IMG/VR virus record: IMGVR_UViG_3300021958_000049
Location: 12,669-76,668 of that record
Origin: a virus
Taxonomy: Duplodnaviria > Caudoviricetes
Strand: one strand, 5' to 3'
DNA length: 64,000 nucleotides
Made by a program: the position numbers and the translations under genes. The notes under the pieces are model-generated. The model did no database searches and had not been told where the DNA came from. It was given only the letters and a program-made list of their open reading frames with translations. Every line of letters starts with the position of its first letter. Position 1 is the first letter of the stretch. Below, piece by piece: positions 8,294 to 47,636 of the stretch.

Positions 8294-8733
8294 TGTCGAA
8301 TATAACCGAAGATAAGCTTAAAAAAATTGAAAACTTACTTATTACCGAACGTAAAGATTGGTCAGAAAAGATTCAATCGCTAGTCGGTACTATTGATAAG
8401 GCACATAAAATTGCTAAATCACAAACATTAATGTTATCATATCGGCATATGATCGTAGATAAAATTATAGAACTTAATATATTACTAGGTAAGAAACGAG
8501 CAAATGATGCTAATTACAAGAAGCTTCGCTATCAATATTACAAAACTCAACATGATGTTAGATTGCAACATAATGAAATAATGGAGTATATTGCATCGGA
8601 TATGTCTTTGAGAATTAGAGAAACTAGTTTAATAGAAAATCAAATTTCTTACTATAAACAAGCAAACGAAACTTTAGATAAAATGGGATTTGCTATAAAA
8701 AACAGAGTTATTCTGGCTACAAATGATATTTGA
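8293..8733 (+). CDS. uvsY: UvsY-like recombination mediator
   Basis: 146 aa helical coiled-coil adjacent to UvsW, ending in the KN.I pattern seen in UvsY. Confidence 0.6.
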   Translation: MSNITEDKLKKIENLLITERKDWSEKIQSLVGTIDKAHKIAKSQTLMLSYRHMIVDKIIELNILLGKKRANDANYKKLRYQYYKTQHDVRLQHNEIMEYIASDMSLRIRETSLIENQISYYKQANETLDKMGFAIKNRVILATNDI

Positions 8734-10243
8734 TTTAACACATAACGGCAAAATACTAACATTAAGAGATGCTACTGAACTTGAAATAGATCAGCTTAAA
8801 ATAACGTTGACTAAAAGAATTGAAAATTGGCGATGGGATCCTAGAGTCAAGAAAGGTTGGTGGGATGGAAGAATAAGCTATTTTAGAAACGAAATGTATG
8901 TTCCATCCGGACTATGGCAAATAGTTCGAGATATGTGTAAGGATTATGATTTTGAATTGCAGGTAAATGGATTATCTGACAAATTTGATAGATCTATACA
9001 ACTAGAAGAGTTTACTGAATGGGTTAAAGATAAATTTAAAGATCATAAATTAGATCCAAGGCCTTATCAAATAGAAACCGCTTTTAATATAATTAAAAAT
9101 AAAAGTTGTTTAGCCGAATTAGCGACATCAGCAGGTAAATCATTAATATTATATATTGTTTTAGGGTACTTGTTAGAAAACAAAAAGGCAGATAAGGTTT
9201 TAATGATCGTACCTAACGTTAGTTTAGTTGTACAAGCAACCGAAGATTTTTATGAATATAATAATGGTTCGTTAGACTTAGATTTACAAATACAACAAAT
9301 ATATTCAGGATCAAAAATTAGAAAAAACGCAAATGTTGTAATAGGGACTTATCAATCTTTAGTAAAAAAGAAGAAAGAATATTTCGATGAATTCACAACA
9401 GTGATGATCGATGAAACTCACAAAGCAAAAGCACATTCTATTAAAACCATACTAGAAAAATGTATGGAAGCTGATAGAATATTTGGAGTATCTGGAACTA
9501 TACCAAAGCCTGATTCTTTAGATCGATTAACATTAATGGCTTATACTGGCCCAGTGATACAGAAGGTAATGGCTGATCAATTAATTAAAGAAGGTTATAT
9601 TTCACCGGTTGAAGTCAAAGTAATTGAAATGAATTATGCACCAGATAGCGTAAGAGAAAGCTTTCAATATTTAACAAAAAGCGAAGAAGATCGAAAAAGA
9701 TTATTAGGATTAGAACAAAACTATGCGATTCAAGCTACGGAAAGATTAAACTTTGTTACAGATACGGTTCTTAAGGTCAAGAAGAATTGCCTGGTGTTAT
9801 TTTATAGAGTCGAATATGGTAATATGATATTCAATAATCTACGAAACAAAAGTTCACGTAGAGTCTTCTATATTGATGGTGGAACCGATAAAGACCTAAG
9901 AGAAGAATATAAAAAGCAAATGGAAGATGGTGAAGGTAAAATATTAGTAGCTTCCTTTGGTACATTTTCTACAGGTATTAATATTAAAAACTTACACTTA
10001 GTTGCACTAACTGAATCATTTAAATCCGATGTTATTATTCGTCAATCTATTGGTCGAGGATTAAGAAAACATGAAACTAAAGATAAACTTACTATATTAG
10101 ACTTTGTCGATGATTTTAGAATAGACAATTTCGTTAATTATCTTTATAGACATTCTAAAAAGCGTAGAGAAATTTACAAAGAACAACGATTCCCTTATGA
10201 AGTCAAAACAATAGATTTGTCAAAGATATATAATAAAACCTAA
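8723..10243 (+). CDS. uvsW: UvsW SF2 DNA helicase
   Basis: PRPYQ, ATSAGKS, IDETH, GVSGT, FSTGINIKNLH, RQSIGRGLR. Confidence 0.92.
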   Translation: MIFDLTHNGKILTLRDATELEIDQLKITLTKRIENWRWDPRVKKGWWDGRISYFRNEMYVPSGLWQIVRDMCKDYDFELQVNGLSDKFDRSIQLEEFTEWVKDKFKDHKLDPRPYQIETAFNIIKNKSCLAELATSAGKSLILYIVLGYLLENKKADKVLMIVPNVSLVVQATEDFYEYNNGSLDLDLQIQQIYSGSKIRKNANVVIGTYQSLVKKKKEYFDEFTTVMIDETHKAKAHSIKTILEKCMEADRIFGVSGTIPKPDSLDRLTLMAYTGPVIQKVMADQLIKEGYISPVEVKVIEMNYAPDSVRESFQYLTKSEEDRKRLLGLEQNYAIQATERLNFVTDTVLKVKKNCLVLFYRVEYGNMIFNNLRNKSSRRVFYIDGGTDKDLREEYKKQMEDGEGKILVASFGTFSTGINIKNLHLVALTESFKSDVIIRQSIGRGLRKHETKDKLTILDFVDDFRIDNFVNYLYRHSKKRREIYKEQRFPYEVKTIDLSKIYNKT

Positions 10244-10264: not shown

Positions 10265-10765
10265 ATGGCAAAATCTACTGGAAAATTAAAGTATGATTTA
10301 GCATTATCAACAACGTCAGTTTTTGACACATCTTCAGTATATGTTAATAAATCTGCTGTTTTAAATATCAATGGTAATGCAAATCTACAATATAAAACAA
10401 TAGGAGCAACATATTCTGATAATTCAGGATTGTTACCAACCGAAGCTAACTTACTACCTGGACCTTCCGCTTCTTTAGGAAAGGCTTATTTATATGTAAG
10501 AAATCTTGGACCTACGGCTGCCTCTTCTGTTAGAGTCAGTACTTCACAACTATCTGGATCTACATCTGTATACGATGCAAACCAATTTGCTGATATTGCA
10601 GTTGGAGAATTCGCATTTTTTCCAGTAGTAATAGGACCATCTTCATCTAATATTTTTGTTAGATCAGGATACGAAGCTGGCTCAACATATGCTGGAGCTA
10701 CATATAATGAAATTGAATATATGATTGCATATACGACTCCTAACATTGAAGGACCTAAATATTAA
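10265..10765 (+). CDS. hypothetical late protein, beta-rich, probably structural
   Basis: Late motif 32 bp upstream; S/A/G/Y-rich beta-sandwich-like sequence. Confidence 0.55.
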   Translation: MAKSTGKLKYDLALSTTSVFDTSSVYVNKSAVLNINGNANLQYKTIGATYSDNSGLLPTEANLLPGPSASLGKAYLYVRNLGPTAASSVRVSTSQLSGSTSVYDANQFADIAVGEFAFFPVVIGPSSSNIFVRSGYEAGSTYAGATYNEIEYMIAYTTPNIEGPKY

Positions 10766-10789
10766 TTAAATTAAAACAAACAATATAAA

Positions 10790-11632
10790 ATGGCACTAGT
10801 AAAATTTTCAAAATTTAAAAAGGAAAGAGCTACAATTAAAGAAGCTAGAAATAAAGAGATGAAATCTAAAAAGTTTAATCAACTATTTAGTGAAACTCTT
10901 AAAGAACTAGGACTTAATTCAGTAGCAGATCTTTCAGAAGAACAAATGAATTCATTTTTATCAGCATTAAAAACTAAAAAGATTAATGAAGGTAGAGCAG
11001 AAGAAATCGAAGCACATACAATGGCTGCTGGAGAACCTCAACCTGCTGGAATGGCTGGAGAAATTAACCAGAAACATGGTTTTGATTCACCACAAGATCC
11101 TAATACTGCAGAGGATGCTAAAGCAGAAGATTTGAAAGCAGATGAAAATGATACGATCGAAGTTGAGGTTGTTGATGATAATGCTGAGGTAACCGAAAAT
11201 GCTGAAACTGTTAACGAAGCTAAATTTAAAAAAGGACAATATATTAAAGCCAAACGCAATAGCGATGATTTTGATGGAGATGTTTATGATAAAACTAACG
11301 ACGTTGATGGATCTGAAATCTTAAAAAACTCATCATTCGAAATTTACAAAATTAGTAAAGATGAAGTTATTCTTTGGAGTGATGCTGATGAAGTAGAATA
11401 CTCTATCGATCCAGATGATCTTAAGAATTTCGTAAAGGAATCAGTAGTTAATGAAGCAGAAATTAAATCAGATAAGGAATTTGAAGATTATGCAACAGAC
11501 GTTTTAAAGAAATCTCATCCAGACGATTATGATGAGGCCATTGCCAAAAAGGTAATAGATGGTCTTAAAGACAAATATAAGGATGATTATGGTGCTATGG
11601 TTGGTGCTTTAACATCAGGATTTGGAGGATAA
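10790..11632 (+). CDS. putative internal head polyprotein with NE(A/G) sites and an SH3-like module
   Basis: INEG, VNEA, VKES, VVNEA; 79-aa module starting AKFKKGQYIK between two VNEA sites. Confidence 0.55.
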   Translation: MALVKFSKFKKERATIKEARNKEMKSKKFNQLFSETLKELGLNSVADLSEEQMNSFLSALKTKKINEGRAEEIEAHTMAAGEPQPAGMAGEINQKHGFDSPQDPNTAEDAKAEDLKADENDTIEVEVVDDNAEVTENAETVNEAKFKKGQYIKAKRNSDDFDGDVYDKTNDVDGSEILKNSSFEIYKISKDEVILWSDADEVEYSIDPDDLKNFVKESVVNEAEIKSDKEFEDYATDVLKKSHPDDYDEAIAKKVIDGLKDKYKDDYGAMVGALTSGFGG

Positions 11633-11659
11633 TAGAATTAAAATATACACAAATAAGAT

Positions 11660-12817
11660 ATGAAAAATAAAATGATGACTTTTGATGCATTTAATCTTGT
11701 TAAGGAATTGAATGAATCTCATGATAAGTTTAACAAAGAATTAGCTTTAAACGAAGCTTTTAAATCTGATTACCTAAGAAAATTTGCTTCTCAAGAAAGT
11801 GGAACTCGTTGGCAACCAGGATTTGCAAAAGATTTCTATAAACATGCAGGAATTAAATTAGATCAGATCACTAACGAAGATTTTATTATATTATCGAATC
11901 CATCTGAATGGTGGACTCAAAAATACGCAAAGAATGACAATGCCGTTGGATTCTTTGTTGATGATGACCCAGAATTCTTAAAGGCATTAAAGAAAGCCAA
12001 GAAGCTTAAGAGTTTAGGTGGTGTCGGTGTAATTCTTACAATTATGAGAGGTAATCGTGGAATGTGGTATGGATTTGCTAAAGATGCAGGTTCAAGTTTT
12101 TCAAGATATAGAAAAGGATCTACTGAGAGATATGGTGTTCTTGCTGATGAATATGATACTGCATCTCTTTATGGATGGGATGGAGCTAAACAAAAGGCGA
12201 GAATAACTAGACCTAATCTGGAAGAAATGGCTACTAAGGTTTATGTTTTAGATATTGATGCACTTAAAGAAAAATATAGTGCTTCTGAGTTAACTTCAAA
12301 CCGTAGAGACTCTAAAGCTGGTGCTGTAGCTTTATTAAGTGATAAAGAGGTAAAAGCTGCTAATAAAGCTCGATATGAAAAAATTCTTCAAGATCGCTTA
12401 GATCCAAAATTAATGTTCGAAGATGTTAAAGAATCGATGACTAAATATACAAATTGGTTGTCGAACAAAGTATCAGAAATTACATTAGACGGTATGGAAT
12501 ACGAGAATAGCAGTTATTTTAACGAACAGAAAGTTAAATGGGGTTCTTGGAATGAGAATCTTATGAGACCTATCGAAAATATGTGGAGTTTGTTGAATAA
12601 GTTTATGAATCGTTATTATGACTTCTTGAGAGATCAAGCACATGTTGAAAGATTACAAGAAAAGCTTATTAAAGCAGATTCGACCGAAGCTCAAAAGATT
12701 CAAAGTGAAATCGACTACTATGCAAAAACATATAACAGATTCGTAAAAGAAGCTACGAGTTATAGAGATTACGTAATAAAATATAAAAAAGACGTAGATG
12801 CAATTGTTTCAAAATAA
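11660..12817 (+). CDS. putative internal head protein
   Basis: Leader MKNKMMTFDAF...LNES...LNEA; no catalytic motif recognised. Confidence 0.5.
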   Translation: MKNKMMTFDAFNLVKELNESHDKFNKELALNEAFKSDYLRKFASQESGTRWQPGFAKDFYKHAGIKLDQITNEDFIILSNPSEWWTQKYAKNDNAVGFFVDDDPEFLKALKKAKKLKSLGGVGVILTIMRGNRGMWYGFAKDAGSSFSRYRKGSTERYGVLADEYDTASLYGWDGAKQKARITRPNLEEMATKVYVLDIDALKEKYSASELTSNRRDSKAGAVALLSDKEVKAANKARYEKILQDRLDPKLMFEDVKESMTKYTNWLSNKVSEITLDGMEYENSSYFNEQKVKWGSWNENLMRPIENMWSLLNKFMNRYYDFLRDQAHVERLQEKLIKADSTEAQKIQSEIDYYAKTYNRFVKEATSYRDYVIKYKKDVDAIVSK

Positions 12818-14111
12818 ATTTAAAAGATATAATCAGTTTGTATTCGAAAAGTTAATTAACGAAGCAGATGATATTATTTTAGAAGGTGGTGCGTTTGGCC
12901 ATATGGCACATCCATACGATGATATTAATTTAACCTTTGGAGAAATTAAAAATATGATATCTGATGCTTTGCAAGGAGGATTAGATAAGGAGGTTGTTGC
13001 TTCTGAGAAATTAGATGGTCAGGCTATTGCGGTATCTTGGAGAAACGGAGAATTAGTTGCTGCAAGAAATAAAGGCCACTATAAAAACTCAGCTGCCGGA
13101 GCAATGAACGTTCAACAAACAATTGATAAGTTTGCAGGAAGAGGTGATATAAGTGATGCATTTGGTTTTGCTATTAAAGATCTATCAGATGCTATATCAA
13201 AAATAGATGCAAAGAAACGAGATGATATATTTAAGAATGGTAAATCGTTTATGCATCTAGAACTAATATATCCACCAACTACTAACGTAATTAATTATGA
13301 TGCATATCGATTAATATTCCACAGTGCTACCGAGTATGATGAGGCAGGAAATCCTATAGGAGAAGATAAAGCTTCAGCTGCTTTATTAACAAAACTTATT
13401 AAGGGTGTTAATGCAGATATTCAAAAGACTTATACAATAGTACCTCCAAAGGAGATGCAATTCACTAAAAATATTAATTATGAAGCTGATCGAGCAGAAT
13501 TCTTTAAAGAGCTAGCAAAAATACAAAAAAGTGCTGGTATGAATGATAATCAATCTATTAGTGATTATATTAGAAAAGAATACACTGACTTAATAAAAGG
13601 TGCTGCTGATAAATATGGTTATGATATTCCTGAAGATGTTTTAGAAAAACTAATCAGAAGATTTGCATTTGAGGATAAATCTTTTAAAGTACCACAATTC
13701 AAAAAGGCAATACTAAATAAAGACTTTTTAGAATGGACTCTAAAGTTCGATAAAACCGGAGTTAAAAATTACTACAAAGAAGTAATAGGACCTATTGAAT
13801 TATTGTTCTTAAAACTTGGAGTTAAGGTTATTAAATTAGCTACCGGATTTTTAGCAACTAATCCAGACAAAGAAGTTCAACGAATTAAAGATGAGCTAGA
13901 AAAACTTATTAAGGATGTTAGAGCTGGTGATAATGAAGTTAAGGTTGCTAAACTAGAAAGAGAACTTCGTAGACTTGAAGCTATCGGAGGATTTGATGCG
14001 GTAGTTCCTTCTGAAGGAATTGTATTTCAATATAAAGGAAAGACATATAAATTAACAGGAGCATTTGCACCAATAAATCAGATACTAGGTACTATCAAAT
14101 ATATGAAATAA
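12798..14111 (+). CDS. ATP-dependent ligase-fold nucleotidyltransferase (DUF6267-like, from memory)
   Basis: Motif I EKLDG, Ia ARNKG, III HLELIY, IV SEGIVF, V YKLTG; preceded by INEA/ILEG sites. Confidence 0.65.
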   Translation: MQLFQNKFKRYNQFVFEKLINEADDIILEGGAFGHMAHPYDDINLTFGEIKNMISDALQGGLDKEVVASEKLDGQAIAVSWRNGELVAARNKGHYKNSAAGAMNVQQTIDKFAGRGDISDAFGFAIKDLSDAISKIDAKKRDDIFKNGKSFMHLELIYPPTTNVINYDAYRLIFHSATEYDEAGNPIGEDKASAALLTKLIKGVNADIQKTYTIVPPKEMQFTKNINYEADRAEFFKELAKIQKSAGMNDNQSISDYIRKEYTDLIKGAADKYGYDIPEDVLEKLIRRFAFEDKSFKVPQFKKAILNKDFLEWTLKFDKTGVKNYYKEVIGPIELLFLKLGVKVIKLATGFLATNPDKEVQRIKDELEKLIKDVRAGDNEVKVAKLERELRRLEAIGGFDAVVPSEGIVFQYKGKTYKLTGAFAPINQILGTIKYMK

Positions 14112-14543: not shown

Positions 14544-14584
14544 AAGACTGGAGATATATATTAAAACTAAAAAAACGAAAACAA

Positions 14585-15058
14585 ATGAACAATTTGAAAA
14601 GCTACGATGAATTTCTTTTTGAGGCTACTAAAGCTAAAGAAATCGAAGACAAAGTAAACGATTTAGGAGAACCAAAAGATGATAAAGCAGAAGCTGAAAA
14701 ATCTATGAAAGATTCTTCCGAAGGACCTAAAGAAGTTGGTGCTGAAAAGGCCGATATTAAAAAGGATGAATTGAAAAAGGATGATAAAGCTGAAGCTGAA
14801 AAATCTATGAAAGATTCCTCTGAAGGACCTAAAGAACCTAAAGAAGAAAAAATCGAAGATGTTAAAGAAATGTCTGAGTATAACGAGAAACATGATAAAT
14901 ATGATGATCGTCTTGTAAACATGACTATTGGAAAAGTTTTAGATTATCTAAAAACTAAGGATCCTAACGCATATAAAGATATTGAGGCTTATTTAGAAAA
15001 GAACTTTAAAGATTTGACTAGTGCAGATGAATCTTGGTTTACTACTATGACTGCTTAA
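14585..15058 (+). CDS. acidic putative internal head protein with internal duplication
   Basis: Leader MNNLKSYDEFLFEA; DDKAEAEKSMKDSSEGPKE twice; late motif upstream. Confidence 0.6.
   Translation: MNNLKSYDEFLFEATKAKEIEDKVNDLGEPKDDKAEAEKSMKDSSEGPKEVGAEKADIKKDELKKDDKAEAEKSMKDSSEGPKEPKEEKIEDVKEMSEYNEKHDKYDDRLVNMTIGKVLDYLKTKDPNAYKDIEAYLEKNFKDLTSADESWFTTMTA
14678..14836 (+). repeat. 57-bp direct repeat, 2 copies (14678-14734, 14780-14836)
   Basis: gatgataaagc(a/t)gaagctgaaaaatctatgaaagattc(ttcc/ctct)gaaggacctaaagaa; differences are synonymous. Confidence 0.9.
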
Positions 15059-15067
15059 AACTAAAAA

Positions 15068-16774
15068 ATGTCTGCAGGATTATCAAATTTAATTTCATTA
15101 TACAATCAAGAAGGTCGAGATTTTGTTCTTGACCTTCTTGATAAATTTGTAGTAATCAAAGAAAAGAACAATGGTGCCAATCTTTATTTTAAAAAGGATG
15201 GTGACCATTTGTCATTTTATAGGTCTAATTTAAAACCTATTTCTATAATTGATAGAACAATTACATCTATTTATGAAAAGCCAATAAATCATATATTATC
15301 GGTAACTGAAGGTATTAAGTTTCCATCAAATTATATGTATGGTATTAAATATGATTATGTTAATGAATCTATAACATTAGATGAAATTCGTGTATATAAA
15401 TCTAGGACTAATATAAAGTTTATTGATGATTTGCAAATATTACAAGAAAACGCAAAGTCTTTGGAGATAAACTCTCCTAAAATAATACATTACGGTAGAC
15501 TTAGTAATAATCAAAAGACAGAATTACTAAAAGTAATAGTAGATCCAAGTTTATTGGAATCAAATTTATCTAATATTTTTAATACGAATAATAACGAATT
15601 GATAATTAAATTTCTTGATAAAATGAACGAAAATGTATCAGCAAAAATATTAGATCCTAAAAAGGAAATTAAGATTAAGAACGAGGTAAGAGAACCTTCG
15701 GATACTTATTCAATTGCTTTACAAGATGTTCTTGAATTTATACAAACTTTTAACTTTGATACAATAAAAATTAAAGGCGAAGATAACGATCAAAAAATCT
15801 TAAATATATTAGCCGATGTATATGCTAAGTACATGGCAAAAAATGGCTACAAATATTCAGGAATCGAAGATTTAGATGGACCTAACTTTTCGAAGAATAT
15901 ACCGTCATTTGATGTTAACTCTAAATTTGTAATAAATAAAAACGCACAAAATTATATTGCAAAATCTCAGATTAATAAAGACTTGTTTAAATTGTTTTTA
16001 GGAACTTTTATTAAGAAGAAGAAAAAGACTACAATATTAATTGACGAAAACACAAGATTCGAAATCAATAAAATAATAGATATTATTATGGAACGTATTA
16101 AGACAAAACCTATTGAAAAAGAAACCGTTCCTACGTTTGAAGAATATTTCTATAATCGTTACCAAAAGCGTGCATTAATGGAAGCCGAGGAATTAACCGA
16201 TGAGGAAACTTACATTATTGAAGGAGCTTCGGTAACAGATAAATCTCAGGGAAAGACTAAAGTAAACATAGTCGTTGGAAGATTTCAACCACCAACTTTA
16301 GGCCACGTTAAATTATTAAGACAATTACATGCGGTAAATAGTTTACCGGTAGTAGTTGTACAAGTAAGATCTAAGAGCGGACAAAAAACTCCATTTGATA
16401 ATGAACTTATTACTAGAATATGGATGGATATTACTAAGCAATATAAATTTATAGAAGGAGTTGTAGAAACTCAAACAGGATTTATATACAATATTATAGA
16501 TGCTTTACGTCCATTATACGAACCAGTACTTTGGGGAACCGGTAGTGATCGATTAAAAGATTATGAAAGACAAATTTCTAAGTATGGTCCTGAGGCAAAT
16601 GTATTAAAAGAATTTGAACCATACGAAGTTAAAAGAACTGGTAAAAATATAAGCGCAACGAAAGTAAGAGAGGCTATTTTAGAAGATAACCAAAATGAAT
16701 TTAAAAAATTAACTCCTAAAGCTGAGCATAGATATTACAAACAATTGAGAGCAGAGCTTTTACAATCAAAATGA
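15068..16774 (+). CDS. degenerate ligase-like domain fused to HIGH-family (NadM/cytidylyltransferase-like) nucleotidyltransferase
   Basis: N-terminal KEKNNGANLYF; C-terminal GRFQPPTLGH, GTGSDR, ISATKVREAI. Confidence 0.7.
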   Translation: MSAGLSNLISLYNQEGRDFVLDLLDKFVVIKEKNNGANLYFKKDGDHLSFYRSNLKPISIIDRTITSIYEKPINHILSVTEGIKFPSNYMYGIKYDYVNESITLDEIRVYKSRTNIKFIDDLQILQENAKSLEINSPKIIHYGRLSNNQKTELLKVIVDPSLLESNLSNIFNTNNNELIIKFLDKMNENVSAKILDPKKEIKIKNEVREPSDTYSIALQDVLEFIQTFNFDTIKIKGEDNDQKILNILADVYAKYMAKNGYKYSGIEDLDGPNFSKNIPSFDVNSKFVINKNAQNYIAKSQINKDLFKLFLGTFIKKKKKTTILIDENTRFEINKIIDIIMERIKTKPIEKETVPTFEEYFYNRYQKRALMEAEELTDEETYIIEGASVTDKSQGKTKVNIVVGRFQPPTLGHVKLLRQLHAVNSLPVVVVQVRSKSGQKTPFDNELITRIWMDITKQYKFIEGVVETQTGFIYNIIDALRPLYEPVLWGTGSDRLKDYERQISKYGPEANVLKEFEPYEVKRTGKNISATKVREAILEDNQNEFKKLTPKAEHRYYKQLRAELLQSK

Positions 16775-16799: not shown

Positions 16800-17417
16800 A
16801 TGTCTGAATCATTAAACGAAGGACGTCATCAAGTTAAAAGACGTTATGGTACACATGGAAGAATTCGTGTAAACGAAAACGGTGCTAAGGTAAGAGAAAC
16901 TATAATTAAGTATATAGGAAAAAATTACGTTACTGAAGAAGATTTACATAATCATTTAATTCGTTTAGAAGAAGATCGTGGAGGTGTTAAAGTTAATAAA
17001 GCAAAATGGTTTGCCAGAAATCAAAAACTATTCTCGACATTCGAAAAGAAAGGCAATCGTTATTATTCATTATCTAAGTATGGAATGAGAGTTTTAGAAT
17101 TAATGAATAACAAAGTTGTTAAGAAAACTTTGAATGAGAGTAATTTTAAAAACATCCCGTCTTTATCAGAATGGATTTCAATAAACGAAGCTAATGTAAA
17201 CGAGGCTAAGTTTAATAAAAAGTCTTTAATGAAAGCTATGAAAAAGGATGATGGTATGATTCAATTAGGTAACGGTCAAGAATATGTTATCTATGCATTT
17301 GGTAACGGAAACGATGATAACGATGATATGTGGGGAGATAAAACAATTTTTGCGCTAGATCAAGACGGTGGAGAGCACGAGATTAAATACTCTGATATCG
17401 TAAGCTATAAAGAATAA
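16800..17417 (+). CDS. putative internal head polyprotein
   Basis: SLNEG, LNES, INEANVNEAK followed by a ~70-aa beta module; late motif 19 bp upstream. Confidence 0.55.
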   Translation: MSESLNEGRHQVKRRYGTHGRIRVNENGAKVRETIIKYIGKNYVTEEDLHNHLIRLEEDRGGVKVNKAKWFARNQKLFSTFEKKGNRYYSLSKYGMRVLELMNNKVVKKTLNESNFKNIPSLSEWISINEANVNEAKFNKKSLMKAMKKDDGMIQLGNGQEYVIYAFGNGNDDNDDMWGDKTIFALDQDGGEHEIKYSDIVSYKE

Positions 17418-32959: not shown

Positions 32960-33007
32960 ATAACTTAATTATTAAAGATAAATATATAAACAAAATAAAA
33001 TTATACA

Positions 33008-35008
33008 ATGAGCAAATTAAAGAATTTTGACGAATTTGTCAATGAAAATTTGGTTATCGGAGGAACATACAAACACTTCGGACCTGGATCATTAGATCCT
33101 ATTATTCAAAAGCTTATAGGTGAAGGAAAGAACGAATCTATTATTAGAACATACTTAACATCACTTGGTGTTGAATCTTGGAGAATAGATAAAGCAATGT
33201 CTAAATTTGGTGGAGTTGAATTTTCAGGTGAAAAGAATATGAACGAAGCTAAATCAAAGAAAACTTTCGAAGAAACTGCAAATAAATTTCTTTCTGATAT
33301 TAATGAAGAAGACGAAGAATCTATCGATGAAGCATCTCGTTGGAAAGGAAAGGAAATATTTCCTAATTGGGTTAAACCAAATGAAATTTCAGGATTAATC
33401 AAAAAAGAAAAGGATTTAGAAAAAGGTTCTATGTACGCTTTATTAGACTTAGGTTTAGATGTTTGGCAAGCGGAATATGAATACGAAGGAAAGGTTGGGC
33501 CTATACATATATTTAAATCAACTGCTCAAGGAACTAGCGATGATTCTAATATAGAATTTACTGATAGTGAATTAAAATCTGCACTTAAGAATTTAGAAAT
33601 TGCAGTAATGGAAGCTTATCAAATGGCTATGAATGAAGCTAAAATTAATAAAAACGCTAAACGTTCAATAAGACCTCATAATAAAGTAAAACCAGGAATG
33701 GTTGCTATAGACTATAATGACGAACCTTACACAGTTGTTGGAGTTGGTAAAGCTAGTGAATTACTTGATTTTGATGATAGTGGAATTGCTGCTGATGGAA
33801 TGGATATGGATGAACCAGCAATCGCAACAATAGGAAGAGGTGGTTATGCTGTTTATTCTTATATGCCTGATGGTGCCGTTGTTTACGAATCAGAAGTTAA
33901 TGAAGCTAAATTTGTAAAAGATTTTAATAAAGATGTTTTAGATGCTACTACAGAAAAGGAAGTAAAGTCAATATATCCTAAAGCGGTATTCTTTATCGGA
34001 AAACATTCACACTTTTTTGGAGAACTTGAAGATAACTTATTCTTTAAAGCATACTATATTAAAGGAAGGAGTGAATTTGAAATCAAATCAATTTATTCTC
34101 AGAAAGGAAGTAAATATGTTCATTTATATCTTAATGAATCAATGGTTAATGAAGCTAAAAAATACACAATAAAAGATATTATATCTGCTTACAAAGACGC
34201 TTTTGGTGAAGATATCACGAAAGGCGATAGAGTAGATATAATAGACGATATCAAATCTGATTACAAAGGTAAGATCACTATAGATGACTTAAAGGCTATT
34301 TATGACGATAGATATGGTGAGGAAATTGAAGCAGACTTTTTGGATGCATTAGGCGAATCTGTTAACGAAGCTAAAAAGAAAACTTTTGAAGATGCTGCCG
34401 CTGCATTTATTTTAGGTCTTGCTGGTAGCGACCAAATCGACGAAATGTCAGAAAACAAAATGCCAACTAACGAGGAAGTAACAAAATGTATTGCAGATGG
34501 AATGACTTACGAACAAGTTTGTGAGAAATATCCCGATGCAGATAAAGCAAAGTTAAAAGAAATGTACGAATCGTGTGGTAAAAAACATGAGAGTGTATCA
34601 GAAAAACTTAATAAAGAATCTCTTCAAATTGAAGAAGGTGACGGTGAAGATATTGATGATATGATCGACGATCTTGCCGATGGTGATGAAGATGAATATC
34701 AAGGTGCTGATGATGAAGCTCCTAAAGATAAAGATTCTGATGATTCTGATGATTCTGAATCTGGTTTAGATAAAGCAGTTAAAGATGCTAAAAAAGATAA
34801 GAAAAAACTAGATAAAATTAAAGACATATTAACAAGCGAAGCGGAAGAAGTTGAGCTTGATAAAGACGGAAAAGAAGAAAAAGATAAAGAAAACATCGAA
34901 GACGAAGAAAGTGGAGATGAGATCGAAATCGAAGAATCCGTTGATAAGGAAAGTGATGCATACATGGCTGCAGTACTTGAAGGTCTTAAAAAGAAATTCA
35001 ACGGGTAA
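33008..35008 (+). CDS. putative internal head polyprotein of NEAK-delimited modules
   Basis: Leader MSKLKNFDEFVNE; NEAK at 33242, 33632, 33899, 34148, 34364; acidic tail. Confidence 0.65.
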   Translation: MSKLKNFDEFVNENLVIGGTYKHFGPGSLDPIIQKLIGEGKNESIIRTYLTSLGVESWRIDKAMSKFGGVEFSGEKNMNEAKSKKTFEETANKFLSDINEEDEESIDEASRWKGKEIFPNWVKPNEISGLIKKEKDLEKGSMYALLDLGLDVWQAEYEYEGKVGPIHIFKSTAQGTSDDSNIEFTDSELKSALKNLEIAVMEAYQMAMNEAKINKNAKRSIRPHNKVKPGMVAIDYNDEPYTVVGVGKASELLDFDDSGIAADGMDMDEPAIATIGRGGYAVYSYMPDGAVVYESEVNEAKFVKDFNKDVLDATTEKEVKSIYPKAVFFIGKHSHFFGELEDNLFFKAYYIKGRSEFEIKSIYSQKGSKYVHLYLNESMVNEAKKYTIKDIISAYKDAFGEDITKGDRVDIIDDIKSDYKGKITIDDLKAIYDDRYGEEIEADFLDALGESVNEAKKKTFEDAAAAFILGLAGSDQIDEMSENKMPTNEEVTKCIADGMTYEQVCEKYPDADKAKLKEMYESCGKKHESVSEKLNKESLQIEEGDGEDIDDMIDDLADGDEDEYQGADDEAPKDKDSDDSDDSESGLDKAVKDAKKDKKKLDKIKDILTSEAEEVELDKDGKEEKDKENIEDEESGDEIEIEESVDKESDAYMAAVLEGLKKKFNG

Positions 35009-41607: not shown

Positions 41608-43275
41608 ATGAACTTAATTAATGAATCTGAAATTTTCGGAAAATGGGCTCCAATTATCGAGTCAACTACTGGAATCGAAGACAAAGGTAAATTAGGGTGG
41701 ATGTCTAAATATTGCCATAACCACGAGTTGTATGAGAATAATTCTTATGCACAAGTTGGATCTGTAAACGGTATGGGATCAGTAAGATTTCCTGGTAACC
41801 CAGGAGCTCAAACTGCTTTCGGTGCTCAAACTACAGGATCTGGTGATAAGCCTTACACTCTTCTTCCGCTTGCAATGCAAGTTGCTGCACAAACTGTTGG
41901 ATTAGACTTAGTACCAGTTGTTCCTATGAACGGACCAATGGGTATCTTAACTTATTTAGACTTTGTGTACGGTGGAGGTAAAGTACCTACTGTTGGACAA
42001 ACTGGTGGATCAATCACAACTGCTGGAACAACTCCAGACATGCCATTACTAATTAAAGTAGATGGTGCAATCACTGCTGCTGGTGGAACATTTACTGCTG
42101 CTCCTGTTGCCGGTGAACAAGTAGTATCAAATACTGGTGCTACATTTACTTTCGTAGGTGAATCTAGAATCGATGGATTTGACATCTTTAAAGTAGACGC
42201 ATTAGCCGCTAGCCAAAACGTTGCTGCTGCACTTGTTGCAGGTACAACATTAACATGGACTGCTGGTGGAACTGGTGTAATTACTACTTCAGGTTCTCCT
42301 GCTCTAGTAAAAGCACTAGAAGATCACGTAATTGGTTTCTCTTCTAACAAATGGGATGGTTCTTCTGAGCCAATGTCAAGATTAGAAGGTGAAGGTACAC
42401 AAGATAACGTAATGAACTTAAGCCTATTCAACAAATCAGTTGAGGCTAAAACTTACCAAGTTGCTGCTGCAGTAACTCGTGAGCAAGTTCAAGATCTTAA
42501 GCAATTCGGTATCGATGCTGTTGCACAAGTTGAATCTGTACTTATCAATGAGTTAACTCAAGATATTAACAGAAACATCCTTGAAAGACTACGTAGACTT
42601 GGTTATACTAACCACGGTAATGTGTACAAAACTCAAGGTGTTCAATTCAACTTATTAGTTGGAACTACTACTGGTAACACATACTCTGCAATTCCTGCTC
42701 TAGCTGCTTTAAATAGTGCTGGTTCTGATGGTGTAGCGGTATTTGGTGCTGCTGGTACTTACAATCCGGTAGTTGCATCTTCTGAAACTAACTCTGCTGC
42801 TGAGAATTTACATACTAGACAACGTAAAATCATGTCTAAAATTCTTGCAACTGCGAACTTAATCGCAATCAGAGGTAGACGTGGACCTGCTACTTTCGCC
42901 GTTACAAACGGTCAAGTAGGATCTGCTTTACAAGATGTTGCTGGATTCGTTCCTGCTCCAATGGCAAATACGCTAAATCAACAAACTGGTTCATTGTACC
43001 CAATCGGTACTTTAGCTGGATTGGCTATTTACGTAGATCCATACATGAGCTGGAGTGATACTCGAGTAACTGTAGGTAGAAAAGGTGATGGAAACTCTCC
43101 AGGACTTGTATTCATGCCATACTTAATGGCTGAATCAGTACAAACTATCGCTGAGGGAACAATGGCGCCAAAAATCGCTGTTAAATCTCGTTACGCTTTA
43201 GTTGAAGCTGGATTCCACCCAGAATCTATGTACATCACATTCGGTGTAGCAAACGAAGCTGGTGGTTGGGCTTAA
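41608..43275 (+). CDS. gp23: major capsid protein
   Basis: KWAPIIE, DLVPVVPMNGPMG, LINELTQDINR, FMPY, KSRYAL. Confidence 0.93.
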   Translation: MNLINESEIFGKWAPIIESTTGIEDKGKLGWMSKYCHNHELYENNSYAQVGSVNGMGSVRFPGNPGAQTAFGAQTTGSGDKPYTLLPLAMQVAAQTVGLDLVPVVPMNGPMGILTYLDFVYGGGKVPTVGQTGGSITTAGTTPDMPLLIKVDGAITAAGGTFTAAPVAGEQVVSNTGATFTFVGESRIDGFDIFKVDALAASQNVAAALVAGTTLTWTAGGTGVITTSGSPALVKALEDHVIGFSSNKWDGSSEPMSRLEGEGTQDNVMNLSLFNKSVEAKTYQVAAAVTREQVQDLKQFGIDAVAQVESVLINELTQDINRNILERLRRLGYTNHGNVYKTQGVQFNLLVGTTTGNTYSAIPALAALNSAGSDGVAVFGAAGTYNPVVASSETNSAAENLHTRQRKIMSKILATANLIAIRGRRGPATFAVTNGQVGSALQDVAGFVPAPMANTLNQQTGSLYPIGTLAGLAIYVDPYMSWSDTRVTVGRKGDGNSPGLVFMPYLMAESVQTIAEGTMAPKIAVKSRYALVEAGFHPESMYITFGVANEAGGWA

Positions 43276-43372: not shown

Positions 43373-45721
43373 ATGAATCTAATAACAAGAGGCGAATACG
43401 ATAGTATCAATGAAGCCGTTATAGGCTTAAGAAGATTAGCATCTAAGGAAGATTTAGAAGCGGTTAATGACCAGGAATTTAATGAAATGATTAAATTTTT
43501 GTTACTACTTAATAATCAAACTGGTGCTCGTTTATGTGAATCTCATTACACTCTAATAAAAGAATTGATGATAAAATCAGATTTGGTTAACGAATCTAGA
43601 TTCGAATCAATGGATAGTATAGTTGCTATTAATGAAAACTATATCAATGAAGATTGGGATGATGATGTTAGTAAAGGAATAACAACAGCGGCAGTAACAA
43701 CTGGAGCGGCAGCAGTATCTTTAGCAGCATACATATCTTTCTTATTTAAAAAGAAGAAAATTAGAAAGGCTTGGGAAAAGGTTAGAGATAAAGAATTAGA
43801 AGCTGTTAATGTTGATAAGGATTTAGCCGATACTATTAAGTCTTATGAACCTGAACTTTCGAAAGAAGAGGTTGCTGATAAAGTTTCTGAAATAGAAAAG
43901 AAGAAGGAAGAGGAGAAAACTGCATTAAAAGATTTTGATGCTAATAAAAAAGAAGAGGTTGAGAAGACTGAAGATAAATTAAAAAAGACTGAGGATGTTA
44001 TTAGAGATTTAGATTCGTCAGAGGCTGGTGGTGAGAAAAAGGAAGAGACCAAGCCAAAGGTAAAACCAAAATCTAAAACTGAGGTTCAGGAAGCTGAGGA
44101 TACAACAACCGTTGATAAGACTAAAGGTAATACTGATGAAGAGGAGGCCACTGGTAAAATACCTGATAAGAAAAAGGAAATTAAAGATATAAAAGATAAT
44201 TCTGATATAGAGGGCGAATTAGAAAAGCTTCGAAAAGAAACCGCTAAAATAGAAGATGAAAATAAGAAGATTAAAGAAAAGGGTGGTAAAGACGCTACTA
44301 AGAAACTTGAAGCAAAATCTAAGGAAAAAAAGAAAATATCTGATAAAATAAAGGAAGTTGAAGAAGAAGGAACCCCTGAATTAAAAAAGGCCAAAGACGA
44401 ATTAAAGGTTTTAAATAAAGATCTTGAAAAAGAAAAGTCAAATAGAGATAATCAAAAGGATACTATAAAATCTGCTAGAGACGAGGAGGCTATCAAAAAA
44501 GAAAAGGAAGATTTAAAATCTAATATAGAATCTGCTGAGACCGAGATTAAAGATATTAAAGAAAAGGGTAAGCCTCGTGGAACTGATAAAGAAAAGAAAC
44601 AAGCAATTGATGATGCAACAAAACAAAAGGAACAAATTGCGTTAGAGGTTGAAGCTGCCAAAAAGGAAGCTGATAGAATTAGTGGAACTAGTGGTGGTGG
44701 CGAAAAAGCTAAAGGTGTTGGTGGAAAAATATTTGGATTTTCTTCAGGATACGTACAACAAATAAAGGGTGAACATGCAATCGAAGTGTTACAAGCTAAA
44801 AAGGATGCATTGACTACTAATGATACAATATCAGATAAAGATAAAGCTGCTCAAGAAAAGGCAATTGATGCACAAATAGCAAAAAGTAAAGAATCTATTA
44901 AAAATGGAGAAGAGACTTTAAAGAATGCAACCGACGGCGTTGATGCTTCTGATGAAGAAATTAAAACTGCAGAACAGGGAGTTAAGGATAAGGAATCCGA
45001 ACAAGAGGCTGAAAAGACTAAAAAAGACGCCAAAGATAAGGCTAATAAAAAGGAAGCTATTGATGATGAAATAGAAAGACTTAATAAAAAAATTGAAGGA
45101 GCTAAAAAAGCTTTAGATGGCGGCAATATCCCTAAAGGAAAGGAAGAAATGGTAAAAGCTAACATCGATGCATTTAATGATAAGAAGGCAGAGCTACGCA
45201 AAATGAAAGATAAGTTAGGTGAGTCTACGTATTACAAATTTAATTTAGCTTTATTAGAACGAGATATAGATGCATTATTAAATGAATATAACATTATAGT
45301 AGAAACTCGAAAAGAATTATTAGAAGAGGAACCTAGCGATCCAAAAGATGATGAATCTGGCAGTGACAAATCGGATAAGAGTAATTCACTAGAAGGAAAA
45401 AAGGTTGTACTAGTTGATATGAGAATTAAAGATCTTGGAGCGTTAGAAGGTGCTACTGGTGAAATAATTAAAGTGTTTAAAGAAAACGAACGTGAACCTG
45501 AAGGAGACTTACCAAGAAGAACAGGAGATCCAGAAATATTCAAAATTAAATTAGATAAACCAAAGGATCCTATGTATCCAGAAATCAATTTAACCAAAAA
45601 GAATTTTAAATTAAAGGAAGATAAGCCGGAATCTAAAGAGGAAGGGACTAACGAGAATATTAACGAATCTTTTAGACAACGATTCTATAACGCATATAAT
45701 GATACAAATAAAAAGATCTAA
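43373..45721 (+). CDS. large K/E-rich coiled-coil putative internal/ejection protein with one hydrophobic segment
   Basis: Late motif; INEA, VNES, INEN, INED sites; GITTAAVTTGAAAVSLAAYISFLF then KKKK. Confidence 0.55.
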   Translation: MNLITRGEYDSINEAVIGLRRLASKEDLEAVNDQEFNEMIKFLLLLNNQTGARLCESHYTLIKELMIKSDLVNESRFESMDSIVAINENYINEDWDDDVSKGITTAAVTTGAAAVSLAAYISFLFKKKKIRKAWEKVRDKELEAVNVDKDLADTIKSYEPELSKEEVADKVSEIEKKKEEEKTALKDFDANKKEEVEKTEDKLKKTEDVIRDLDSSEAGGEKKEETKPKVKPKSKTEVQEAEDTTTVDKTKGNTDEEEATGKIPDKKKEIKDIKDNSDIEGELEKLRKETAKIEDENKKIKEKGGKDATKKLEAKSKEKKKISDKIKEVEEEGTPELKKAKDELKVLNKDLEKEKSNRDNQKDTIKSARDEEAIKKEKEDLKSNIESAETEIKDIKEKGKPRGTDKEKKQAIDDATKQKEQIALEVEAAKKEADRISGTSGGGEKAKGVGGKIFGFSSGYVQQIKGEHAIEVLQAKKDALTTNDTISDKDKAAQEKAIDAQIAKSKESIKNGEETLKNATDGVDASDEEIKTAEQGVKDKESEQEAEKTKKDAKDKANKKEAIDDEIERLNKKIEGAKKALDGGNIPKGKEEMVKANIDAFNDKKAELRKMKDKLGESTYYKFNLALLERDIDALLNEYNIIVETRKELLEEEPSDPKDDESGSDKSDKSNSLEGKKVVLVDMRIKDLGALEGATGEIIKVFKENEREPEGDLPRRTGDPEIFKIKLDKPKDPMYPEINLTKKNFKLKEDKPESKEEGTNENINESFRQRFYNAYNDTNKKI

Positions 45722-46178: not shown

Positions 46179-47636
46179 ATGAAACATTTCGAAAACTTTC
46201 AATTAATAACTGAGGCGTTATCCTTTAATAAGGTACAAGTAATAATACTTTCGAACTTAGAAGCAGAGTCAACTACAGTAGATGCCGTAGTAAAAGCTTG
46301 TAAAAGGCGTGGAGTACCTTGTTACCCATTAAATGTTAAGACAGCGTTTATTAAGGAATTTGTAAATAAACGTAATGATATTAAAATTGGCGATGCCGAT
46401 AATAAGCCTATTGCAATCAATCGATCAAATACTGTTATTCTTTCTAGACGAGGTATTGTTAATTCTACATATACAAGACAATTATTAGAAGACTTAGAAT
46501 CTTACAACTTCTTTTGTGTAAATACTTTGAATTCTATAATGACTTGTGAAAATAAGAACACAACAAATAGAATATTAGAAGCTGCTGGATTACCAACACC
46601 TAAAAATTCGATACTATCGGATCCTGAAGGAATAGATCAAGCACTAAAAGATATTGGTGGTAAGTTTCCAGTCATTGTAAAAATGTTATCAGGTTCTCAA
46701 GGTATTGGCGTTTCTCAAGTTGATTCTTACGAATCATTAAAATCAGTATTACAAACTCTTTGGAAAGCTAGTGGCAAAAATGAAATATTATTACAGGAAA
46801 TGATACCTGCAACCGGTGATGTGAGAATTCATGTTTTATCTAAAAAATTCTTTAGTCCTGATGATGAACATTCTGAGGTAATTGCGGTAATGCAAAGAAC
46901 AGCTGCTAAAAAAGATTTTAGAACAAATTATTCAATTGGCGGTGGAGTTAAGAAATTTAAGTTAACTAAGGAAATGGAACAAATTGCAAAGGATGCTGCA
47001 AAAGCTGTTGATGCAACTTGGTGTGCTGTTGATTTAATCATAGATAAGAATACGAAGAAACCTTATATATTAGAAGTTAATGGATCTCCTGGTACTAAAG
47101 GAATTACAGAAGCTACTGGATTACCAGTAGTTAAAATAGTATTAGATTATATATTAAATAAAGAAAATTGGACATATCCTAATATCAGCTGTGGTTTTAG
47201 GGAAGTGATTACAATTCCAGGTGTTGGTGATTATGTGTGTAAAATGGACACAGGAAATGGCGGAAAGGCATTATCTATACATGGAGAAAACGCAAAAGTT
47301 AATGGAAAATACTTAGAATATGAAATTAACGGAAAGTCTTACAAAGATAAAATCGTAGATTATTCAAATCCAGTTGTAGGAGAAGAAACTTTAGAAAGAC
47401 CTATTATATTAAAGGATCTTGTATTCGCCGGTAAATTAGTACCTAAAGTTCCAATATCAATAGTTGATAGAACAGAAAAATCTACACCGGCATTAGCTAA
47501 TCGAAAATTTATGGATAGATTAGGTATAAATGTTAGTCCATCTAAAGCTTTTAGAGCTACATCTTTTGATGGTGGTGAATACTCGGTTGAGGATTCTATA
47601 GGTAATGCTCTAGGAGGAATTAAATTCGAAAAATAA
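46179..47636 (+). CDS. rimK: RimK-family ATP-grasp ligase fused to RimB-type retropepsin-like protease
   Basis: NK..T..IL.AAGLPTP, FPVIVK..SGSQGIGV, LLQEMI, DFRTNYSIGG, AVDL, LEVNGSPG; then CKMDTG...RP...ISIVDRTEKSTPALANRKFM. Confidence 0.9.
   Translation: MKHFENFQLITEALSFNKVQVIILSNLEAESTTVDAVVKACKRRGVPCYPLNVKTAFIKEFVNKRNDIKIGDADNKPIAINRSNTVILSRRGIVNSTYTRQLLEDLESYNFFCVNTLNSIMTCENKNTTNRILEAAGLPTPKNSILSDPEGIDQALKDIGGKFPVIVKMLSGSQGIGVSQVDSYESLKSVLQTLWKASGKNEILLQEMIPATGDVRIHVLSKKFFSPDDEHSEVIAVMQRTAAKKDFRTNYSIGGGVKKFKLTKEMEQIAKDAAKAVDATWCAVDLIIDKNTKKPYILEVNGSPGTKGITEATGLPVVKIVLDYILNKENWTYPNISCGFREVITIPGVGDYVCKMDTGNGGKALSIHGENAKVNGKYLEYEINGKSYKDKIVDYSNPVVGEETLERPIILKDLVFAGKLVPKVPISIVDRTEKSTPALANRKFMDRLGINVSPSKAFRATSFDGGEYSVEDSIGNALGGIKFEK

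Follow-up and report, generated by a model that had tools for sequence, protein, structure and literature searches.

A putative head-targeted polyprotein of exchangeable small modules, delimited by prohead-protease-type sites, in a large uncultured T4-related phage

A single gene in a 64,000-nucleotide stretch of viral DNA (positions 12,669 to 76,668 of IMG/VR record IMGVR_UViG_3300021958_000049, hereafter the window) appears to encode several unrelated small proteins in one chain of 666 residues. We interpret the product of this open reading frame (ORF), P0001, as a head-targeted polyprotein that is cut by a gp21-type prohead protease into small internal proteins, a reading to which we give a probability of about 0.6. 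The architecture itself is real, non-random and evolutionarily mobile; that the modules are injected and have anti-defence roles is what we infer. The source is a 76.7-kb viral contig with a CheckV completeness of 23%, from a large uncultured phage related to T4. Capsid targeting and processing in T4 is the classic route by which a phage delivers protein together with its DNA, and all three of T4's internal proteins (IPI, IPII, IPIII) have now been found to block restriction enzymes of the host. T4 internal proteins gain entry to the prohead by means of a 10-residue capsid-targeting sequence (CTS), MKTYQEFIAE, which is then cut off (10.1101/2021.01.19.427310); mutational work assigns residues 4 and 7 of the CTS to targeting and residues 8 and 10 to processing, and gp21 cuts after Glu in the motif L/I-X-E (PMC9026906).

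The chain is punctuated by a short motif, NEA, at residues 79-81, 209-211, 298-300, 381-383 and 453-455 (N codons at 33242, 33632, 33899, 34148 and 34364), in all five cases as (M/V)NEAK. Further sites of a similar kind are IDE↓A (106-109), VME↓A (200-203), LNE↓S (375-378) and LGE↓S (448-451), where the arrow marks the putative cut. Each lies exactly where an earlier reading of this DNA, the original prediction, had placed it, and the leader-like KKTFE(E/D) that it described as repeated is seen at residues 84-89 and 457-462. Given how often each amino acid is used in the ORFs of the window, [VILM]NEAK should occur 0.004 times in the 666 residues but occurs five times (Poisson P(≥5) = 9e-15), and over all ORFs of the window it occurs seven times instead of 0.12. 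Across the homolog set [VILM]NEA[KR] is present 109 times, with 1.1 expected. The looser pattern, a hydrophobic residue, any residue and Glu followed by a small residue, has, in the polyprotein, the protease-scaffold protein and the adjacent 492-aa protein, 3-10x the density that it has in most replication and metabolic proteins of the window. The joint is conserved as E-S-V-x-N-E-A-K, which is stricter than the minimal T4 rule requires. At the DNA level the joints are 15-nt repeats, so that they also act as in-frame recombination points; their codons differ between lineages yet the peptide is retained, which points to selection on the protein.

The joints delimit six predicted modules (M1 to M6), two leader-like spacers (L1 and L2) and an acidic tail (Table 1). 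The blocks between sites had been described as mutually unrelated, some beta-barrel-like and others helical, and both descriptions stand: BLAST found no resemblance among them apart from the two short KKTFE leaders (E=0.001), and AlphaFold2 predicted strands in M2 and M3 and helices in M5 and M6. The model of the full chain, built with 20 orthologs, consists of separate domains rather than one continuous fold running across the NEA sites, with a predicted template modelling score (pTM) of 0.22 and confident islands at residues 30-67, 125-209, 240-285, 384-450 and 484-530, and all five NE↓A joints fall in disordered stretches where the predicted local distance difference test score (pLDDT) is <50. 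Folded alone, with 59 aligned sequences, M4 is predicted as two helices and five strands (pLDDT 86, pTM 0.73), and the last seven residues of that model, which are the joint, are disordered.

No family in Pfam-A or PHROG matched the whole protein or any module at E<=0.01, and these searches revealed no homology to T4 IPI, IPII or IPIII for the protein or its modules, nor any match of the 666-aa protein to T4 gp22, gp67 or gp68. Recognisable conflict-effector domains (ART, MPTase, ParB-like, methylase) were absent as Pfam domains, and fold searches stayed below the noise level. Searches with the full and M4 models (Foldseek vs PDB, VIA-align wide vs PDB, BFVD) gave no credible match, the best scores being Z 5.5 for Tudor/SH3-like barrels against M2 and Z 4.7 for M4, with all Foldseek E>0.03; low-level rows for BLIP-like, Ugi and RecX repeat folds were not used as evidence, and an Atlas feature search gave no usable match.

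Comparison among relatives indicates that the joints are also boundaries of exchange. Gene order around P0001 is kept in 15 IMG/VR contigs, and the genes that flank it, a gp15-like gene and the 492-aa gene, are 60-97% identical while the gene in the slot between them varies (99, 111, 256, 264, 329, 349, 578, 595, 600, 666 or 758 aa), M1 being the only module common to all occupied slots. G008, a more distant relative with a portal 55% identical, has an empty slot and otherwise the same head genes. Instead of the conserved, colinear protein expected by analogy with T4 core proteins, the slot thus holds between 0 and 758 aa, and its orthologs are not colinear, modules having been gained and lost exactly at NE↓A joints, in agreement with the original prediction. 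For example, 95%-identical orthologs lack exactly residues 385-451, that is M5, an indel bounded by the repeat GTTAAYGAAGCTAAA and visible as a 216-nt difference between GTTAATGAAGCTAAA and GTTAACGAAGCTAAA. The same joints are occupied by other cassettes in further orthologs. One of 170 aa, with a stretch predicted to span the membrane, sits at a joint in P0017, P0018, P0021, P0022 and P0025 and at a different joint in P0020; a 75-aa cassette occurs in the tail; a DUF3175-like end (PF11373, 33 bits) replaces the scaffold-like C-terminal motif in P0008, P0010, P0015, L003, L005 and L007; and the more distant orthologs L011-L014 end in a ..FVFPD..AWPIHDE.HAK.. module, so that the C-terminal end of the chain also appears exchangeable. 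Overall, 49% of 461 internal homology breakpoints lie <=6 aa from one of the six main joints (12% expected). The most mobile cassette, M4, is present in 111 of the 259 retrieved proteins, beginning anywhere from residue 1 to residue 611, with 48 families of neighbours to its left and 41 to its right (segments clustered at 80% mutual coverage) and a cut-type site just upstream in 93 of 94 cases.

An exhaustive HMMER census of 1.8 billion cluster representatives recovered stand-alone forms of M1, M2, M3 and M4, each a protein some 70-132 aa long (95-132 aa for the M2 homologs). That M4 never stands alone, as a word-indexed search returning one truncated protein had implied, was rejected on the basis of this census. 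Most stand-alone forms of M2, M3 and M4 bear a CTS-like leader and a cut site directly before the module, the leaders ending in ..VNE↓S/A/G (for example MKNIRSFDQFVNE↓SLNE↓A, MRNIESFEDFVNE↓S and MKPIKRFNEYLNE↓A). Such a putative leader followed by one module is the layout of a T4 internal protein, and the polyprotein looks like several of these stand-alone genes fused, with only the cut sites kept.

The polyprotein has a leader of its own, K-N-F-D-E-F-V-N-E, which in predicted sequence shares the length (~10 residues) and the key positions of the leaders of T4 IPI, IPII and IPIII (and Alt), with an aromatic residue at position 4, Phe at 7, an aliphatic residue at 8 and Glu at 10. The L015 ortholog has MKSYQEFVNE at its N-terminus. 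Within their first 22 residues, 75 of the 250 retrieved homologs have the pattern [FY]..F[ILVM].E, with a chance expectation of about 0.001 per N-terminus. At the other extremity, the tail closes with 15 residues, YMAAVLE↓GLKKKFNG, for which the protease-scaffold protein has a matching end, YMESVTE↓GLKRRFNK, itself conserved in 5 lineages; this suggests that part of the chain works like a scaffold.

The presumed enzyme is encoded 5 kb downstream of the polyprotein ORF, in an ORF that matches PF03420 (Peptidase_S77) at 44 bits (cutoff 27), with a further match to S80. Its residues H70, H123, S125/S126 and R161-V-N-E164 (with A/S next) do not vary across 8 lineages. RVNE↓A/S sits exactly at the border between the protease domain and a scaffold-like region of roughly 420 aa, and has the appearance of a self-release site. 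In all, 15 [ILVM]xE[ASG] sites are present in the protein, and its gene is followed by the capsid gene with no distinct gp22-like gene in between. The motif recurs at the N-terminus of the major capsid protein, where INE↓S and IIE↓S are conserved in all of the five lineages compared.

Expression late in infection is likely for the polyprotein, given an upstream motif together with a gp55-like sigma factor encoded nearby. A conserved AT-rich motif stands ~20-26 nt upstream of the start codon of the slot gene and its orthologs, as AGATAAATATATAAA here and in L003, L006 and L007 and as AAGATATATAA in L011, L015 and L016. The related motif GATATATA is found 27-40 nt upstream of many + strand ORFs, including those for the gp15-like, 492-aa, protease and other jointed proteins, with 14 sites of this type in the window (e.g. 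4735, 10225, 14553, 16773, 31884, 35028, 39797, 58193 and 61762); AGATATATAA was observed 6 times where 0.97 were expected, always on the + strand. This GATATATA/AGATATATAA motif is likely the late promoter of the phage group.

We therefore propose the following scheme. The gene would be transcribed late from its own late-type promoter, and the N-terminal T4-like leader, probably with the scaffold-like tail, would carry the entire chain into the prohead's scaffolding core. There the gp21-family serine protease would cut after Glu at (V/I/M/L)-N-E↓(A/S/G) in the disordered linkers between modules; some six folded modules, each of 8-12 kDa, would be set free, along with the acidic tail and a pair of short leader-like peptides. 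The folded modules would most likely remain in the head and exit with the DNA like IPI-III of T4. That the joints double as in-frame recombination points, with modules gained, lost and exchanged between phages and loci, is shown by the comparisons above, and such rapid turnover fits host-interaction or counter-defence cargo. A tentative extension, which we favour less than processing as such, is that of plug-and-play cargo: small folded domains would be spliced in through a ~15-nt joint that is both recombination site and cut site, one leader would load a changeable set to be freed in the capsid and injected, and modules would move between loci and phages and alternate between stand-alone genes and cassettes.

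Several observations weigh against this interpretation. The residue after the leader Glu is an invariant Asn and not A/S/G, so this particular leader may not be removed. Predicted products of 8-12 kDa are mostly acidic (isoelectric point, pI, 4.3-5.8), M4 being the exception (pI 8.1). The closer clade has a conserved backbone that consists of M1, L1, M2, M3, L2 and the acidic tail, and this fits an assembly role better than it fits expendable cargo. In G008 the joint is VTE↓A, as against VNE↓S at the protease border, with LNE↓A, ISE↓A and INE↓S as sites in the capsid protein; P2 is thus tolerant, and there is no signal of co-variation, ten other contigs being without the protease or capsid gene. 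Finally, tblastn of the 666-aa protein against 50,697 isolate phage records gave no match.

Some of these points would be natural if the protein were a scaffolding or core accessory like T4 gp22, gp67 and gp68, which enters the prohead core, helps to build or size the head, is chopped at these same sites and has its pieces expelled ahead of DNA packaging or in its course, with nothing delivered. Like those acidic core components, which contain several L/I-x-E cuts, the polyprotein is rich in putative cut sites and shares a C-terminal motif with the scaffold part of the protease gene; its backbone is kept in the closer clade; acidic products would be electrostatically disfavoured next to packed DNA; and T4 core proteins are likewise cleaved into a number of pieces, most of which exit the head (PMC9026906). 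The T4 proteins are, in contrast, conserved, essential or size-determining, and show no mosaic of folded cassettes. A purely scaffolding role leaves unexplained how freely folded, unrelated modules come, go and are shuffled, and likewise the empty slot in a relative with otherwise the same head genes, and the stand-alone module genes with leaders in the style of internal proteins; folded domains of 8-12 kDa would also be less likely than short peptides to pass the pores of the shell. We consider it unlikely as an account of the whole protein, but the conserved backbone and scaffold-like tail suggest that part of it serves assembly rather than delivery.

It is less probable still that the protein is never cut, NE-A-K being a flexible linker or recombination joint for in-frame exchange in a multidomain chain that stays whole in the virion or the cell. 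The joints are indeed 15-nt repeats that bound a module indel, and their conservation beyond the minimal protease rule could reflect homogenisation driven by recombination instead of protease specificity. However, the same motif lies at the border of the protease domain and at the N-terminus of the capsid protein, where processing is expected by analogy with T4, and in stand-alone genes it directly follows a CTS-like leader, where T4 internal proteins are cut; variation in the joint codons with retention of the peptide again speaks for selection on the protein. Cutting in the cytoplasm by some other protease (a putative domain at the RimK-like gene 46179-47636, or a host enzyme) to give several small late proteins has little to recommend it beyond the RimK-type ATP-grasp protein encoded in the window, since hydrophobic-x-Glu↓small is a gp21-type rule and not that of an aspartic protease, and the CTS-like leader and scaffold-like tail point to the prohead.

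The preferred reading, processing in the prohead, thus retains part of the original prediction, in which the gene was a concatenated cartridge of injected effectors: module turnover, separate domains, the CTS-type leader, the stand-alone genes and the gp21-family protease agree with such a cartridge, and the acidic products, the conserved backbone and a tail suggestive of a partial assembly role do not.

Table 1. Predicted features of the polyprotein gene and of related genes in the window (arrows, putative cut sites).
Feature	Position	Strand	Remarks
Late-promoter-like motif GATAAATATATAAAC	32977..32991	+	Ends about 20 nt before ATG
Polyprotein ORF P0001, 666 aa	33008..35008	+	Conserved syntenic gene, 15 related contigs
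T4-CTS-like leader MSKLKNFDEFVNE (aa 1-13)	33008..33046	+	Next residue N, not A/S/G
Module M1 (aa 14-80), helical	33047..33247	+	In every occupied slot, always N-terminal
Leader-like spacer L1 (aa 81-108), AKSKKTFEETANKF..., acidic	33248..33331	+	Ends IDE↓A
Module M2 (aa 109-210), small beta-barrel-like	33332..33637	+	pLDDT 60-79; ends MNE↓A
Module M3 (aa 211-299), beta-rich	33638..33904	+	Ends VNE↓A; stand-alone form P0208
Module M4 (aa 300-382), alpha+beta, most mobile cassette	33905..34153	+	Ends LNE↓SMVNE↓A
Module M5 (aa 383-454), helical	34154..34369	+	Ends VNE↓A; missing in 95%-identical orthologs
Leader-like spacer L2 (aa 455-476), AKKKTFEDAAAAF...	34370..34435	+	KKTFE leader copy
Module M6 (aa 477-531), helical, 3 Cys	34436..34600	+	At this slot, closest clade only
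Acidic tail (aa 532-666), net charge -33	34601..35005	+	Ends YMAAVLE↓GLKKKFNG
Prohead protease (gp21 family) + scaffold-like region, 583 aa	39832..41583	+	Pfam Peptidase_S77, S80
Major capsid protein (gp23 family)	41608..43275	+	Pfam Gp23; N-terminus MNLINE↓SEIFGKWAPIIE↓S
Second jointed protein, 280 aa	10790..11632	+	VNE↓AK, VVNE↓AE
Third jointed protein, 205 aa	16800..17417	+	SLNE↓G near N-terminus; INE↓ANVNE↓AK; late-type motif at 16773
Stand-alone small protein, 157 aa	14585..15058	+	Leader MNNLKSYDEFLFE↓A; GATATATA at 14553, 32 nt upstream

The window is AT-rich (31.5% GC). The nearest relatives of its major capsid protein are those of metagenomic huge phages (LR756500, 55% identity) and then of Lak phages (39-43%), with about 33% identity to Tenacibaculum phage pT24, Chryseobacterium phage MA9V and Sphingomonas phage PAU. 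A marine Bacteroidota is the probable host. Upstream of the 666-aa ORF the genes are, in order, those for a gp41-like helicase, a gp47/gp46-like nuclease and the gp15-like tail protein; downstream follow the 492-aa protein, the gp55-like late sigma factor, a gp4-like head completion protein, a gp2-like end protector, the gp20 portal, the 583-aa fusion of gp21-family protease and scaffold-like region, and the capsid protein. In G008 (L035/L036, 32998-33336) an acidic ORF of 112 aa with the leader MKIIKTFNDFISE separates the portal gene from the protease gene, a position that corresponds to T4 genes 67 and 68.

Jointed proteins are not confined to the slot. A second cassette locus (10265-12817, +) follows the helicase gene, and its ORFs 10790-11632 and 11660-12817 (+), the latter with LNE↓S and LNE↓A near its N-terminus, correspond to one jointed polyprotein of 600-765 aa in L020, L021 and L029. 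Both the slot ortholog P0013 and the L021 polyprotein of 765 aa contain modules of ORF 10790-11632. In several related contigs it is at this second locus, after a helicase homologous to the window ORF 8723-10243, that an M4-bearing polyprotein is found, which also carries modules found here in ORFs 10790-11632 and 16800-17417; the 70-aa C-terminal module of the latter ORF follows INE↓ANVNE↓AK and shares 85% identity with one of the modules in the L021 polyprotein.

The leader of ORF 14585-15058 is a near-perfect T4-style capsid-targeting sequence followed by a cut site, which makes this ORF a candidate for a classic single-gene internal protein. A 437-aa protein encoded at 12798-14111 (+), with no Pfam family and the leader-like N-terminus ..YNQFVFEKLINE↓A..ILE↓G (its G008 homolog starts MKIFTNFNEFITE↓S), may be a larger head-packaged protein. 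After the capsid gene, 43373-45721 (+) encodes a 782-aa, K/E-rich coiled-coil protein with a hydrophobic segment, SINE↓A at residue 14 (kept in L006 and L007) and INE↓S near the C-terminus; its size varies strongly among relatives.

The closest known system is that of the T4 CTS, internal proteins and gp21, and the closest concept is that of polyvalent proteins. Beyond the leader described above, the likeness to T4 internal proteins extends to a putative cut motif of hydrophobic-x-Glu followed by a small residue, to a gp21-family protease encoded beside the portal and capsid genes, and to cargo that is small, non-conserved and fast-turning-over, at a locus polymorphic between relatives. The differences are that T4 has separate genes whose products are cut once, whereas in the present case a single chain with one leader combines up to six unrelated modules, set apart by repeated joints, and that the phage studied here has an additional scaffold-like C-terminal tail and mostly acidic products, whereas T4 internal proteins are described as highly basic (10.1101/2021.01.19.427310).

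Polyvalent proteins combine many unrelated domains (two to fifteen) in one polypeptide encoded among virion genes (PMC5512222), have shuffled domain architectures, and were proposed to be taken up into the head for delivery along with the DNA (Iyer et al. 2017, PMC5512222). The polyprotein similarly has six unrelated modules and a gene between the gp15-like gene and the portal-side head genes. Polyvalent proteins have recognisable enzymatic or anti-restriction domains and are thought to be processed by peptidase domains of their own, whereas no module here belongs to a known family, and it is the motif of a separate head-maturation protease that delimits the modules. In phiKZ-like phages a gp21-related protease trims propeptides (PMC10052503); like the putative enzyme here, those proteases (SPN3US gp245, phiKZ gp175) act on a short motif and cut after its Glu, their substrates being many proteins of the head and of ejection, and long propeptides are cut several times, but what is removed is an N-terminal propeptide from one mature protein each and there is no string of modules. 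The original prediction did not recognise its layout from T4-like phages, and indeed full-text literature searches found no published description of polyproteins delimited by prohead-protease sites in T4-like or jumbo phages.

If the polyprotein is processed as proposed, the T4 route would, in a widespread group of large marine phages, carry multi-module cartridges that are swapped at protease joints. A leader together with joints would then be a simple sequence rule by which to find packaged and injected proteins in uncultured phages, and the large catalogue of small proteins of unknown fold obtained in this way would be candidate host-takeover or counter-defence factors. The arrangement would also represent a natural design for loading several cargoes into a phage head. 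Should the more tentative plug-and-play interpretation hold as well, the engineered expression-packaging-processing system based on the T4 CTS would have a natural counterpart in these genes, from which new injected counter-defence proteins could also be drawn.

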